From assembly GCA_964013405.1 (NCBI GenBank), contig CAXGWI010000076.1, positions 1-16,346 on the forward strand: a stretch of DNA of 16,346 bases, in the 5' to 3' direction. Below the pieces are notes generated by a model. It was not told the DNA's origin, did not search any database, and was given only the letters and a program-made list of their open reading frames with translations. Shown one piece after another: positions 660 to 14,175 of this stretch. The DNA is from an uncultured Myxococcales bacterium (GTDB lineage: Bacteria; Myxococcota; UBA4151). The position numbers and the translations under genes are program-made. Numbering within the stretch: position 1 is the first letter of the stretch; each line of letters begins with the position of its first letter.

Positions 660-1370
660 ATGGCAGTCTGGGGCATCTCGGATCTCCATCTCGGCTTTCG
701 CGCCGACAAGCCCATGACGATTTTTGGCTCCCATTGGGCCGAACACCCCGATTGCATGGCCGTGACTTGGGACGAAATCGTCGCCGATGATGATGTGGTG
801 TTGGTCCCAGGGGACAACTCCTGGGCCATGCGACTTGAGGAAGCCGATCTCGACCTGGCTTGGATCGCCGATCGACCGGGCACCAAAATCCTGCTCAAGG
901 GCAACCACGACTACTGGTGGAGCTCCATCGGTCGAGTGCGAGCCGCACTGCCCGAGAGTCTCCGGGCCGTGCAAAATGACGTGATCAGTGTCGACAAGTA
1001 CCATTTCGCAGGATCGAGACTGTGGGATCAACCAGGGCATCGTGGTTTTAACGCCAATGATAGGAAGATCTTTCTGCGGGAGATCGAGCGCCTGAAGTTG
1101 AGCTTGCAGTTGGGCAAGAAAGCAGCAGCCCGTGACGGCCGAGAGTTGATCGTTCTTTGCCACTATCCTCCCTTTGCCGAAGACGGTGGCCCTTCTCCAT
1201 TCACCGAACTGATTGAAGACAGCGGCGCTCGGCTCTGCGTCTACGGGCATCTCCATGGCCGGCGAGCCCGGGGTCAGGCCCGGGCCCGAGAAGGTGAGAT
1301 CGCTGGTGTTGAGTACAGACTGCTCAGCTGCGACCTCCTCAATTTCAGCCCACTGAAGCTCCGTGAATGA
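660..1370 (+). CDS. Calcineurin-like metallophosphoesterase, DR1119/COG1768-like (236 aa)
   Basis: All five metallophosphoesterase motifs present: SDLH, PGD, KGNHD, HYPP, GHLH. Subfamily-like segments KPMTIFGxxW and GNHDYWW. ATG at 660 follows a G-rich RBS (GAGGGTGGGG). Confidence 0.9.
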   Translation: MAVWGISDLHLGFRADKPMTIFGSHWAEHPDCMAVTWDEIVADDDVVLVPGDNSWAMRLEEADLDLAWIADRPGTKILLKGNHDYWWSSIGRVRAALPESLRAVQNDVISVDKYHFAGSRLWDQPGHRGFNANDRKIFLREIERLKLSLQLGKKAAARDGRELIVLCHYPPFAEDGGPSPFTELIEDSGARLCVYGHLHGRRARGQARAREGEIAGVEYRLLSCDLLNFSPLKLRE

Positions 1371-1984
1371 GCCGGATTGATTTCGTCCTCGCCGGCCTGA
1401 CCTCATGGTCTCCCCTCGATGACCAGCCCTCCGTCACCGGATCCTACCGCTGGTTTGTGGAAGATTGGACGGGCCACCTCCCCCCTTGCGACCGCTTCGC
1501 CGAAGCATGGGGTGTCGAGATTCAGGCTTGGCCCAGGGGCTTTGCAGAACAGATCGAAACCGCTTTAGCCGGCCAAACGGTGGTGCTCGTGAGTGGTGAC
1601 CCCCTGGTCGCAACACCACACGGACACCTCCTCACCGCCCTCAAGGATCATGGCCTCAACTGTCTGGTTCGCCGCCGGCCCGGGATCATTGATCTAGTCG
1701 CTGCGCGCATCGGCCAGCGCCCCCGGCTCCTTCCAGCCAGTGCATCGGCCGAGATCGATCTCCACCTTGGCGCCCGCCAGGACCCCCTTTTGGTGGTCGA
1801 AGATGACCAAGTCGAAGACCTTTGGCATCTCGGCAAAGCCTGGCAGCAAGCCGGCTGGAAAATCACCTGTTATGCGAACCTCGGCGGCGACGACGGCTGG
1901 GAGGGCTCCCTCGAGAACGCCCCAGCGCAAGGACTTCGCTGCCTCGTCTTTCAGGGTGATTTAGGCGTCTCGCCGGCCCCGTAG
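1367..1984 (+). CDS. Class III (tetrapyrrole-methylase fold) SAM-dependent methyltransferase-like protein, most reminiscent of diphthine synthase Dph5 (205 aa)
   Basis: ATGA overlap with the upstream gene. Contains VVLVSGDPLVATPH (GDP motif of the fold), preceded by IDFVLAGL and FVEDWT and followed by a PGI segment. Confidence 0.65.
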   Translation: MSRIDFVLAGLTSWSPLDDQPSVTGSYRWFVEDWTGHLPPCDRFAEAWGVEIQAWPRGFAEQIETALAGQTVVLVSGDPLVATPHGHLLTALKDHGLNCLVRRRPGIIDLVAARIGQRPRLLPASASAEIDLHLGARQDPLLVVEDDQVEDLWHLGKAWQQAGWKITCYANLGGDDGWEGSLENAPAQGLRCLVFQGDLGVSPAP

Positions 1985-2676: not shown

Positions 2677-2695
2677 ACCGCTCCTAGGGGCCTCC

Positions 2696-3106
2696 ATGGA
2701 AACCTGCATTATCTGCAGCGGCCCCCTCGAAACGGCGGAGGCCCAAGTCTGTGTGACCTGCATCGACGTGTATACGTCGCCACAGGCCCCGAGCAAGCGC
2801 GCTCGACGCAATCGGAATGCCCACGGCACGCAAGTGGGCACATCGATCCGCTGTACGCGCTGCGGCGCCCAAGATCAGGTACCTTGGCGCCCCCATTCCC
2901 TGGATCGTATCCTGTGCCGGGGCTGTGCTGCAGAAGTGATCGGTGTCTATGCCCCCGGCGTGGCCCGCCCCCACGACGATGAAGCCTATTACCGTAAAGA
3001 AGGTATTAGCTTTAACCAAGGGCGGCGGGCGAAAGAGATCGACCTCAAAGACAAGTCGGCTGGCCAAATCGTCTATCGTCGAAAAAAACGAGAGCGGGAC
3101 GACTAG
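2696..3106 (+). CDS. Double zinc-ribbon protein with CxxC-x17-CxxC domain (136 aa)
   Basis: ATG at 2696. N-terminal CIIC-x11-CVTC, then CTRC-GAQDQVPWRPHSLDRIL-CRGC (exactly 17-residue spacer with VP[FW]xP), and a basic C-terminus RRKKRER. Confidence 0.75.
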   Translation: METCIICSGPLETAEAQVCVTCIDVYTSPQAPSKRARRNRNAHGTQVGTSIRCTRCGAQDQVPWRPHSLDRILCRGCAAEVIGVYAPGVARPHDDEAYYRKEGISFNQGRRAKEIDLKDKSAGQIVYRRKKRERDD

Positions 3107-3137: not shown

Positions 3138-5024
3138 TTACTTGAAGCGGAAGCCCAACTGGGTGTCCATGCCCCACCGGAAGGTATTGCGGTAACCAGC
3201 CTCGACTTTGTCTTTACGCTCTGGGTCCACGCCGGTCGTATATTCTTCCGTCGAGAAACTCTTCTGGGCGTGAATATTGAACCAAAGGATCGGGAGCAGC
3301 TTCCACCGGACGGCGGACACGAGGATTTCATTATCACCGGCCAACTTGAAGGCCTCGCCCCAGTCGGTGAAGCCCCGCAGGTGATAGGTCGCAAAGACAT
3401 CGAGAAAGGCAACCGGGTGCTCCACATGCACCATCAGGTGCTGGTTACGAGACGGATCACCGCCCAGGACATTCTCGTAGGCAATCTGCAGAGCCCAGGC
3501 TCGAGGTTTGCCGAGTTGAAGATCAACACCATAGCCATTGACCGAACTCGCATCCGCCGCTGCATCGACAGTCGCCTGGAACTTTGTGGGGTCCGTGCTC
3601 GTGGCCACCTGGCCTGGTGCCGCAAACTGATAGCGCTGCACCGCGTAAAGACTATCAAAGTAGGAAGGCACAAAGCCGGGGGCAATGTTGCGGAAATCCG
3701 TGCGAATTCTCGCCGCCCAAGTGTCCGCACCCTCGCCAAAGTTCAACCGGGCCAGCAAGCCGCCGGTGATCCCTAAGCCGCCAGCAACCTCGGTCTGCGA
3801 CGAGTTCAGGAAACTCATTTGACTGACATCAAGGTAGAGCTTGAGGTCGGTCTTCGCATCAGCACTCTTGTAGACCTTATACTCAACATCCAAGCCAATG
3901 CCGGTCACCGACCCCTGGTCGCTCGCTTCAACAATGGGGGTGTAGCCGTTCTCCTTGTCCAAGTGGAGGCATTGATTGGAGGACCCTTCCGCCGCCGCGT
4001 CGTCACCCCCCTCACAAGCGCCTCGCTTGACAGCGACCGGCGCCGCCGGGTCCATGGCCCAATGGACACCAATCGATAAAGAGCGGGGCCCGGCCGGACT
4101 CTTGGTTGGATCCGCCTTCATGATGGCGCCGATCGGCTTGATGAAGACGAGTCCACCCGACACCGACTTGTCCGGCGCAGTCAGATTGGAAAAGAAGGAC
4201 TGAAAGCCGCCGAACTTTGTGTAGGCATCAAAGGAAACACTGGTGAAGGTCGTGTCCGTCGAAAGATTCGGGTTGTAGCGCCGCAACAGGGTCTCGTGGG
4301 CCAGACTCGCAGCGCCCACACGGCTCACATTGAGGAAGAACTTGTCCTCTTTCCGGCCGTACTGAGCGTAGAGTAGCGCGGCGAGGTAATCGTTCAACTC
4401 GTCGTAATCTTCGGCCCGAAGGCCAAAGTGTTGATTGGAGAAGAGATCAGGCCGCTCATCGCCCTTCGCGTTGTAAGCCAAGGCTCGCAGCGGCATGGAC
4501 AAGCCGACACGCCACTTGGGTCGAACCAAGTGCCATTCGGGAATGAGCTTCAAGTAGATGTCTTGGTCGATCGTATCGAGACCAATGCGCCCGCCCCACT
4601 CGCTGGTCTTAGGGATGTAGACCGTGCTGCCAGCCTTCGTGAGTTCACCTTTAATGAAGAGTAAGGGCTTCGGTTTTTCCTTGGGTTCTTCTTTCTTCTC
4701 ACCCTCGGCGGCCTTGTCGCCAGCTGCAGGCTTCGCTGCATCGGTGGCTTTCTCACCCTCCGCAGCCTTTGCACCGTCTGCGGCCTTCTCGCCCTCGGCA
4801 GCCTTCTCGCCCTCCGCAGCCTTCTCGCCCTCGGCGGGCTTCTCACCCTCGGCCGTCGCTGCTGCGTCAGCCGCGGCCCCACCACCGCCAGCTGCAGGCG
4901 CGCTGTCTTCAGCCTGCATCAACGCAGTTTCATTGGGGGGCACGGCTTTCGTCCCATCATGGTGAGCCTGGGCCGGTAGGCCCATCCCGAGGACGGTGAG
5001 TGCAAGGCAAAACCTGTTCTTCAT
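3138..5024 (-). CDS. Large secreted protein, probable outer-membrane beta-barrel with N-terminal low-complexity repeat region (628 aa)
   Basis: ATG at 5024 with GGAG upstream. Sec signal MKNRFCLALTVLGMGLPAQA; many alternating amphipathic strands (GIGLDVEYK, GYGVDLQLG); aromatic C-terminal strand WGMDTQLGFRFK. Confidence 0.75.
   Translation of the reverse strand: MKNRFCLALTVLGMGLPAQAHHDGTKAVPPNETALMQAEDSAPAAGGGGAAADAAATAEGEKPAEGEKAAEGEKAAEGEKAADGAKAAEGEKATDAAKPAAGDKAAEGEKKEEPKEKPKPLLFIKGELTKAGSTVYIPKTSEWGGRIGLDTIDQDIYLKLIPEWHLVRPKWRVGLSMPLRALAYNAKGDERPDLFSNQHFGLRAEDYDELNDYLAALLYAQYGRKEDKFFLNVSRVGAASLAHETLLRRYNPNLSTDTTFTSVSFDAYTKFGGFQSFFSNLTAPDKSVSGGLVFIKPIGAIMKADPTKSPAGPRSLSIGVHWAMDPAAPVAVKRGACEGGDDAAAEGSSNQCLHLDKENGYTPIVEASDQGSVTGIGLDVEYKVYKSADAKTDLKLYLDVSQMSFLNSSQTEVAGGLGITGGLLARLNFGEGADTWAARIRTDFRNIAPGFVPSYFDSLYAVQRYQFAAPGQVATSTDPTKFQATVDAAADASSVNGYGVDLQLGKPRAWALQIAYENVLGGDPSRNQHLMVHVEHPVAFLDVFATYHLRGFTDWGEAFKLAGDNEILVSAVRWKLLPILWFNIHAQKSFSTEEYTTGVDPERKDKVEAGYRNTFRWGMDTQLGFRFK
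4695..4856 (-). repeat. Nine degenerate 18-bp coding tandem repeats (AAEGEK hexapeptide)
   Basis: Plus-strand unit approximately cttctc(g/a)ccctc(g/c)gc(a/g)gc; encodes TAEGEK PAEGEK AAEGEK AAEGEK AADGAK AAEGEK ATDAAK PAAGDK AAEGEK. Confidence 0.9.
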
Positions 5025-5049
5025 AGAAACTCCGTTTCCGTTCGTGGGG

Positions 5050-5080
5050 TGATCATGGATGATCAAGCGCGACCCTTCAA
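5050..5080 (-). promoter_or_regulatory. Candidate sigma70-type promoter of the beta-barrel gene, overlapped by a 16-bp palindrome
   Basis: Minus strand TTGAAG (5080-5075)-N17-CATGAT (5057-5052); inverted repeat TGATCAT-GG-ATGATCA at 5050-5065. Confidence 0.4.
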
Positions 5081-13407: not shown

Positions 13408-14175
13408 CTAGTCCTCCTTCGTTTCAGAGTCGGCATCAGCCTCCTCAGTTGTTGCCTCGGCGGCCGCTTCTTCAGCGGGCGCTGCCGCGGCTTCGACAGC
13501 CTCTTCAGCAGGAGCAGCCTCAACTGCCTCTTCAGCAGGAGCAGCCTCTGCTGCCTCTTCAGCAGGAGCAGCCTCTGCTGCCTCTTCAGCAGGAGCAGCC
13601 TCTGCTGCCTCTTCAGCAGGAGCAGCCTCAACTGCCTCTTCAGCGGGAGCAGCCTCAACTGCCTCTTCAGCGGGAGCAGCCTCTGCTGCCTCTTCAGCGG
13701 GAGCAGCCTCTGCCTCTGCAGCCGGCGCTGCTGCTGCAGCCCCGTCGGCGCTGTGGGTCCACTCTTTCGCCTTGGCCTTCTCAACAGCAGCAGCTTCCGC
13801 TGCCTCAGCCCGGGCTTGGTCCAACTGCTCCTGCTCGAGACGAGCACTTGCGATCCGCACTTCGGAATCCACATCGGTGTCGACCTGAATCGTCAGAAAG
13901 CGCCAAACGCCATCCATAATCCGCAGGTTACGTTCGAGCTCCCGGATCAATGCAGGCTTGTGGCCGAGGAAGCGATTGATGACGTAATAGCCCCGGCTGG
14001 ACTTGTTGATCTCGTAGGCGAGCTTGCGCTTACCCCAGTGCTCAACGCCCAAGTAGCTGCCGCCACTCTTGCCGATGACACCTTCGATCCGCTCGAGAAG
14101 GGCGTCTAGTTTACCCTCTTCCTCAAGGTCTGGATCGAGGATGCAGACGGTTTCGTATTCTCTCTGTAACTCCAC
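13408..14175 (-). CDS. rpsF: 30S ribosomal protein S6 with ~155-aa acidic C-terminal extension
   Basis: [27 protein letters not shown] start with GGAGG at 14181-14185. Confidence 0.97.
13499..13714 (-). repeat. Eight near-identical 27-bp coding tandem repeats ([A/V]EAAPAEEA) inside rpsF
   Basis: Plus-strand unit gcctcttcagc(a/g)ggagcagcctc(tgct/aact), starting at 13499, 13526, 13553, 13580, 13607, 13634, 13661 and 13688, with no spacers. Confidence 0.97.

Follow-up and report, generated by a model that had tools for sequence, protein, structure and literature searches.

The window, the whole stretch of 16,346 nucleotides analyzed here, derives from an uncultured Myxococcales bacterium with a genome assembly of 3.9 Mb that is 94% complete. 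It encodes at 1367..1984 (+) a 205-amino acid protein, referred to as P0001, which was assigned as a Dph5-like protein with the fold of class III SAM-dependent methyltransferases by profile searches, fold comparison, trees, and selection analysis. The translation contains the motif GDPLVATPH (1595..1621, +, residues 77–85, placed in a 37-row alignment), the sequence EDWTG (1460..1474, +, residues 32–36) as counterpart of the Dph5 ExYTS motif, and VRRRPG (1667..1684, +, residues 101–106), which sits where Dph5 has the HxxS loop. An earlier note on this DNA had described the protein as collinear with diphthine synthase (Dph5), which in archaea and eukaryotes methylates the aminocarboxypropyl (ACP)-histidine of elongation factor 2 (EF-2), and all of the ordered sequence blocks that it had claimed were present, in the same order, in the 205-amino acid translation. 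The pattern GDP[LM][VIL]AT[TP][HY] occurred once in the source genome (six-frame segments of at least 60 amino acids), so that its presence exceeds chance.

A gene encoding a calcineurin-like metallophosphoesterase (660..1370, +; Pfam Metallophos, E = 3e-12) lies directly upstream, and its stop codon overlaps the ATG of P0001 in an ATGA sequence at 1367–1370. At its 3′ end, the P0001 gene overlaps by 34 bp with a convergent gene for an N-acetylmuramoyl-L-alanine amidase; beyond the latter, the window contains genes that, from reading their sequences, we take to encode ATP synthase, ribosomal protein, and H+-pyrophosphatase components. The GC content of the P0001 gene (0.63; GC3 0.70) matched that of atpA, atpD, and the genome (0.61), indicating resident bacterial DNA that is neither a recent nor a contaminating insert. 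RNA data comprised one run with one 176-nt contig at 570–745, the span of which does not reach the P0001 gene. Scanning for promoters and terminators yielded nothing above chance level, and PADLOC gave no match for P0001.

Further ORFs of the window were noted. A small lipoprotein-like ORF without Pfam match (122–601, +) is located upstream of the phosphoesterase gene, on the same strand in genomes G000 and G001, and on the opposite strand in G002 and G003. The 140-amino acid protein encoded at 2684–3106 (+) has two Cys-pair zinc-ribbon motifs with weak matches to zf_Tbcl_2 and TIGR04272, and is retained beside the amidase in G001–G003. The 642-amino acid product of 3138–5066 (−), which resembles secreted or outer-membrane proteins and has AEGEK-type repeats close to its N-terminus, gave no significant Pfam match; similar ORFs were found in loci L018 and L019. 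The gene products that are presumably ribosomal proteins S6 (13408–14175, −) and L9 (12451–13125, −) both possess long acidic, Ala/Glu-rich C-terminal tails, that of S6 being a tandem [13 protein letters not shown] repeat.

Sequence searches identified five relatives of P0001 with 41–78% amino acid sequence identity. A search of 1.84 billion proteins gave seven matches, five of which were true relatives; the two others (P0018 and P0019) were discarded as repeat artefacts. Among 61 related genomes searched with a profile, six were carriers: the source genome, three of the five others of its family, and two genomes of another class. The proteins form a long-branch clade A, which includes P0001, and a more Dph5-like sister clade B from the second class (P0007–P0012, P0020, and P0022). 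With a profile built from both clades and the best candidates of each genome scored (at most seven), 401 genomes of the phylum yielded six strong matches (E < 1e-50) and 23 weak ones; the latter 23 of 29, none with an E value better than 6.5e-7, were regarded as ordinary class III enzymes, those at CbiL or RsmI loci having been checked. The family is confined to two small Myxococcota classes, being present in four of six genomes of the source class (4/4 among those at least 90% complete) and in two of four genomes of the other class. Genome G004 is without the gene, and its phosphoesterase stops at a contig end; G005 is 59% complete. A motif scan of GTDB genomes returned 15 stretches, six of which were confirmed, one of these (L020, Opitutales) being a chance occurrence inside a 520-amino acid protein that reads like a sulfatase. 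No Dph5 relatives were found in the plasmids and viral contigs searched. The record titles of the relatives name Myxococcales or Myxococcota, and existing annotations of family members are "hypothetical protein," "SAM-dependent methyltransferase," or "precorrin-6B methylase 1."

In four clade A orthologs (P0001 and three relatives), the reading frame was intact with pN values of 0.23–0.46 and pS values of 0.61–0.80, the latter near saturation, and the catalytic-core motif was invariant despite saturated synonymous sites. The dN values of clade A exceeded those of the flanking phosphoesterase and amidase approximately 2.5- to 3.6-fold (0.33 versus 0.13 and 0.09 for the pair G000–G001). The clade A genes are under purifying selection, but this selection is relaxed or redirected.

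The earlier note had stated that the GDPxxATxH and ExYT-like motifs agree better with Dph5 than with CysG/Cob/Cbi, RsmI, or YabN, and Dph5 ranked on top in the NCBIfam, PDB sequence, Foldseek, VIA-align, and Atlas structure searches. In NCBIfam, P0001 matched dph5 alone (TIGR00522, E = 1.8e-4, 21 bits), which was also the sole family matched by all clade A members scanned (6/6). Clade B proteins matched dph5 with E values of 1e-10 and 3e-17 versus 4e-6 and 2e-7 for CbiL and 0.15 for YabN; the ranking placed dph5 above CbiL, CobJ, CobA, RsmI, and YabN. The scores of both P0001 (21 bits) and the sister clade (41–63 bits) were below the curated TIGR00522 cut-off of 114.3 bits. In Pfam, P0001 scored 25.4 bits with TP_methylase (PF00590), just below the cut-off of 27.8 bits, and the sister proteins scored 73 bits. 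Diphthine synthases accounted for all 60 among the matches listed in the PDB sequence search, redundant mutants dominating. Alignment of the clade A profile with a Dph5 profile (hhalign) covered 181 columns with a probability of 96.7. For comparison, a set of eight Dph5 (five checked, all over the cut-off) and 43 other class III enzymes from the same phylum (nine profile-checked) was used. With a profile of 18 bacterial members, the eight Dph5 scored 37–65 bits and the best of the 43 others 31 bits, a test that favors Dph5 because the eight had been retrieved with profiles containing bacterial proteins; the NCBIfam scans are free of this retrieval bias. The clade A profile alone ranked seven of the eight Dph5 on top. 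Sequence identity of the family was 19–24% to Dph5 versus 11–17% to the outgroups.

The RsmI profile TIGR00096 did not match P0001, the ATP-I/L-GN and SDAGxP motifs differ, and the source genome carries a separate RsmI. The YabN profile NF052436, by which alone YabN was compared, did not match P0001 and gave E = 0.15 with P0008. The motifs of CobA, CbiE/F/H/L, and CobF (GxGPG, GDPxxYG-type) were not present in P0001, and NCBIfam gave no match to these families; the neighbors of P0001 are the phosphoesterase and amidase genes, with no cob or cbi gene beside it. RsmI and P0001 were the only two TP_methylase matches in the source genome; thus, no tetrapyrrole methylation pathway was found there. 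P0001 is nearest to Dph5 but falls outside Dph5 proper. As a separate observation, a class III methyltransferase of genome G017 (L047:1366–2355, +) scored below every NCBIfam cut-off (best match CbiF, 68 bits) and formed a long branch near CbiF/CobA.

The AlphaFold model of P0001 (pLDDT 84, pTM 0.64) comprised two domains with five strands each, the layout given for class III enzymes in PMC1282579; together with the structure searches, this predicted model places P0001 in the class III methyltransferase fold. Foldseek listed diphthine synthases first (E = 2e-8) and CbiL at rank 35. In the non-redundant VIA-align comparison, the Dph5 structure 1vce obtained a Z score of 12.7 (rmsd 5.2, 202 residues aligned), followed by 3kwp (11.4) and CbiF (11.2), a small margin of 1.3 Z over the next fold. 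In the Atlas structure search, archaeal Dph5 clusters were first for both clades (TM 0.79–0.82 versus 0.77–0.78 for others), and the Atlas feature searches gave bacterial TP_methylase clusters only. Comparison of the clade B model with Dph5 gave a Z score of 17 at an rmsd of 11, which suggests a domain shift in the predicted structure.

Phylogenetic analyses likewise grouped the family with Dph5 and not with Cbi, Cob, or RsmI proteins, in line with the assignment of the earlier note. In a quick 69-row tree calculated with a mixture model, clades A and B and Dph5 were on one side of a branch with an SH-aLRT value of 97; in a careful 37-row tree (LG+G4), which left aside 4/10 clade A, 2/8 clade B, and 26/43 outgroup rows, this grouping had a support of 99/98. 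The values were 98/96 after removal of the GDPLVATxH columns and 100/99 for clade A plus Dph5 without clade B, the latter with a warning that long branches meet. CobA, CbiE/F/H/L, CobF, and RsmI served as outgroups with no YabN sequence among them, and the partial proteins P0015 and P0016 were excluded from all trees. AU tests rejected clade A with CbiE (p-AU 0.03) or CbiL (0.012), both clades with CbiL (0.010) and, narrowly, both clades with RsmI (0.046); clade A with RsmI (0.056) and clade A with clade B (0.23) survived. The eight Dph5, none of them eukaryotic, were monophyletic (98/95) with both bacterial clades beside them. Nesting of clades A and B with P0023 (p-AU 0.006) or P0025/P0026/P0028 (0.009) was rejected, and nesting with P0013 (0.057) or the DUF357-fused group (0.064) was not. 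Since the bacterial clades lie beside, and not inside, the eight sampled Dph5, no donor is shown. The stem branch of clade A is long (1.5–2.5 changes per site). The Dph5 lineage of the family is well supported.

In Dph5, SAM is contacted by the aspartate of the GDP motif, the threonine of the ExYT motif, and main-chain atoms. Motifs were compared in the 37-row alignment containing eight Dph5, 17 other class III enzymes as outgroups, and 12 bacterial rows. Residues A82, T83, and H85 were found in 8/8 Dph5 and 0/17 outgroups, H85 being replaced by Tyr in 2/6 clade B proteins; T35 of the ExYT-like loop was found in 10/10 clade A proteins, 8/8 Dph5, and 0/17 outgroups. The eight aligned Dph5 share invariant GDPLxATTH and ExYT motifs, of which P0001 keeps G, D, P, L, A, T, H, E, and T, with changes of T90 to P and Y34 to W; the Pro following AT resembles the "SDPG" of RsmI. 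Superfamily-wide features kept in the family are G10, G77-D78-P79, and the last strands; the motifs of the SAM pocket are thereby retained in part. In both clades, the His of HxxS, the GLxxYxFG linker, NxxxGLH, and PPH are replaced or deleted, and the C-terminal PGxLHFxExE helix was missing from 12/12 bacterial rows. As the earlier note had claimed, neither the KFG segment nor the C-terminal helix is retained; from its proposed drift of GLG to LAG, the glycine loss held and the position did not, as A9-G10-L11-T12 aligns with I-G-L-G of Dph5. In clade A, the second glycine of the GxG motif is gone (IGLG to AGLT), and the sister clade retains GLG and vPGvS. RsmI, an active class III enzyme, also aligned without GxG.

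Invariant in 10/10 clade A proteins were GDPxxATPH, T35, G10, and G106, and among the clade's own invariants R28, W29, W55, P56, and V101-R102-R103-R104-x-G106; W34 was conserved in 9/10. The V-R-R-R-x-G sequence that replaces the HxxS loop may form a new anion-binding patch; overall, the family proteins are not basic (pI 4.6–7.9). His260 of the human enzyme is presumably the His of the C-terminal PGxLHFxExE motif. In published work, His260 is modeled at the eEF2 interface (PMC9426662), and C-terminal truncations are reported to abolish activity (PMC9426662, PMC5371833).

The same metallophosphoesterase gene was directly upstream in 7/7 loci examined (six genomes and L031), with an overlap of 4–8 bp in five loci and a gap of 12–14 bp in two; all remaining neighbors differ between clades A and B. 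The phosphoesterase was present in 21 of the 61 genomes, mostly without a Dph5-like gene: in 14 of the 21 it is followed by another gene, and one ends at the contig end. Families f1, f9, f11, f17, f18, and f20 contain its close subtype; the phosphoesterase gene lies downstream of RlmE and L3 in f1, and between genes that we take to be TrmB-like and RecJ-like in f9. In an RpoB tree, f9, f11, f17, f18, and f20 joined with a support of 100, and placing the long-branched family of the window inside this group fitted at least as well as placing it outside (constrained tree better by 3.7 log units); the grouping of f1 with f18 was not rejected (p 0.25). The RecA tree was too weak and confounded by paralogs. 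Since common ancestry of the carriers was not rejected with RpoB, the two genes may simply have been inherited together: if the Dph5-like gene was acquired once, downstream of a resident phosphoesterase gene, with subsequent losses, the linkage may be explained without functional coupling. A coupling of the phosphoesterase with the Dph5-like protein is a tentative proposal, which we consider rather doubtful; the predicted complex of the two proteins scored 0.00 in two runs and was uninformative either way. A weak PADLOC match of the phosphoesterase to PDC-S10 (E = 2.6e-8) probably reflects a shared domain only. No solved relative of the phosphoesterase was retrieved by sequence at E values up to 1, and a search of the open-access literature with its family names found no paper.

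Components of the diphthamide pathway were sought in the carrier genomes, which are 82–94% complete. Dph2 (PF01866) was found in 0/6 carriers, with four archaeal controls positive. The Dph6 family (PF01902) had a weak, DUF71-type match fused to DUF5522 in 1/6 carriers. This fusion protein (L162:1477–2649, −, genome G001) combines DUF5522 with a weak Dph6/DUF71-family PP-loop domain; it gave no tblastn match in the source genome and no family match in the four other carriers. The EF-2 target loop has the motif HxDxxHRG (PMC6143161). This loop was found in 0/7 EF-G-family proteins from five carriers in which domain IV was read, an eighth being cut by a contig end, and the one EF-G domain IV match of the source genome belonged to an ordinary EF-G. 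Because neither Dph2 nor an EF-2-type loop was found and Dph6 was represented only by the weak fusion, diphthamide synthesis in the carriers is very unlikely. The missing Dph2 and EF-2 loop fit the suggestion of the earlier note that the protein is either a diverged Dph5 derivative acting on a new substrate or a pseudo-enzyme. Among other ACP-related families, DTW (DTW/TapT genes) was found in 1/5 carriers, Tsr3 in 0/5, and BtaA in 0/5 with the controls also silent. Both clade B genomes (L025 in G038, L028 in G031) additionally encode a divergent EF-G paralog with a remodeled domain IV, in which the usual YHDVDS loop is missing and an acidic His-containing insertion, not an EF-2 loop, is present; this paralog was not found in the clade A genomes searched.

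The best explanation, to which we assign a probability of roughly 0.55, is that P0001 is a repurposed protein of the Dph5 lineage, probably of archaeal origin, that likely functions as SAM-dependent methyltransferase on another small substrate, probably one with a phosphate or carboxylate group. SAM would bind between the two domains, where main-chain atoms would contact it together with the T35 loop and the retained GDPLVAT motif, and deletion of the YKFG linker and the C-terminal helix would have taken away the EF-2 docking surface. The residues R28, R102–R104, W29, W34, and W55 of clade A may form a new site for an anionic acceptor substrate, to which the methyl group would be passed in an SN2 reaction like that of Dph5. 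The cotranslated phosphoesterase might act on the same compound, a weak and rather unlikely extension. We regard catalytic activity with a probably anionic acceptor other than EF-2 as reasonably likely. The missing Dph5 features (second glycine of GxG, HxxS loop, linker, and C-terminal helix), the long stem branch, and a rate of evolution above that of the neighboring genes also agree with the main rival reading, a Dph5-derived pseudo-enzyme that has kept the fold and perhaps SAM/SAH binding and serves as noncatalytic partner or sensor, e.g., for the phosphoesterase. We consider such a protein doubtful, however, as GDPxxATPH, T35, G10, and G106 are invariant throughout clade A, the active RsmI also does without GxG, and the sister clade retains GLG and vPGvS. 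A precedent for binding without turnover is yeast Dph5, which can bind EF2 without catalysis (PMC6193676).

An archaeal origin by transfer is probable and would imply that the ancestor of a deep-branching Myxococcota group acquired the gene once and that some descendants lost it again; it is favored over ancient inheritance because of the narrow range (6/401 phylum genomes). The monophyly of the eight Dph5 with both bacterial clades outside, the two rejected nestings, and the genome-like GC and GC3 values would agree with an ancient bacterial sister paralog of Dph5 that descended vertically and was lost almost everywhere, with no archaeal transfer. Such a history appears unlikely given the restriction to two small classes of one phylum with five true relatives in the 1.84-billion-protein search, the nestings with P0013 or the DUF357-fused group that were not rejected, and a root that attracts long branches. 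It is highly improbable that P0001 is a fast-evolving bacterial class III methyltransferase of the RsmI, CbiE, or YabN type made Dph5-like by convergence or long-branch attraction: the grouping with Dph5 persisted without the motif columns and without clade B, the states at A82, T83, H85, and T35 occurred in 0/17 outgroups, and the genome already has its own RsmI, although the union of clade A with RsmI was not rejected, the long-branch warning applies, the trees were calculated without YabN, and the Pro after AT recalls RsmI. A true diphthine synthase-like step, in which a non-Dph2 transferase equips a bacterial protein, tRNA, or lipid with an ACP group for methylation by P0001, would account for the retained Dph5-specific ExYT and ATxH motifs, the DTW/TapT genes of one carrier, and the remodeled EF-G paralog of both clade B genomes. 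The scarcity of DTW (1/5), the lack of Tsr3 (0/5) and Dph2 (0/6) matches, that of BtaA (0/5) with silent controls, and the single, ordinary EF-G domain IV match of the source genome make it very unlikely. A more far-reaching, speculative variant, which we hold to be unlikely, is a two-enzyme pathway with the phosphoesterase, in which an archaeal translation-factor methylase, taken up by a deep-branching Myxococcota lineage, (poly)methylates an amino acid-like amine carried by an RNA, protein, or metabolite of the bacterium; if true, it would represent the first bacterial Dph5-lineage enzyme, an undescribed two-enzyme pathway, and a bacterial analogue of diphthine chemistry.

Archaeal Dph5 (TIGR00522; PDB 1vhv, the 1vce/PH0725 series, and 1wde) shares with P0001 the two-domain class III fold and was the best match in profile, fold, and tree tests; it is collinear with the family over approximately 180 columns with GDPLVATxH and ExYT-like motifs in common. 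In contrast to archaeal Dph5, P0001 is approximately 45–60 amino acids shorter and bacterial, with no Dph2 or EF-2 loop found in its genome. RsmI, CobA/CysG, CbiE/F/H/L, CobF, YabN, and the borosin N-methyltransferases (7ltc, 7twm) have the same fold (Z 8.4–11.4), but differ in that they have neither the ATxH nor the ExYT states, score lower with the profiles, and stand on the other side of the tree; members of this superfamily have already been turned toward RNA, tetrapyrrole, and peptide substrates. A parallel is provided by the bacterial DUF71/COG2102 proteins, homologs of Dph6, which likewise represent a diphthamide-pathway family in diphthamide-less bacteria and are read as archaeal transfer with functional shift (PMC3541065). 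These PP-loop ATPases are widespread and clustered with B12 salvage genes (PMC3541065), whereas the P0001 family has few members and is accompanied by a phosphoesterase gene. Bacteria are described to be without all known diphthamide genes (PMC3541065), Dph5 is among the archaeal single-copy markers (PMC6143161), and the homology of Dph5, RsmI, and Cbi methylases is noted (PMC7617358). No report of a bacterial Dph5 homolog was found in the searchable open-access literature, supplements aside. Apparently undescribed so far, the P0001 family represents a real variation on a known enzyme type and is best regarded as a putative class III methyltransferase derived from Dph5.

The reach of the finding is limited by the rarity of the family and by uncultured hosts with no phenotype. 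A maintained bacterial Dph5 offshoot would mean that the Dph5 enzyme can be detached from EF-2. The natural series of Dph5 and its mildly and strongly remodeled relatives could serve to distinguish SAM-binding from EF-2-recognizing parts, and the two clades point to a methylation reaction still to be assigned in these bacteria.
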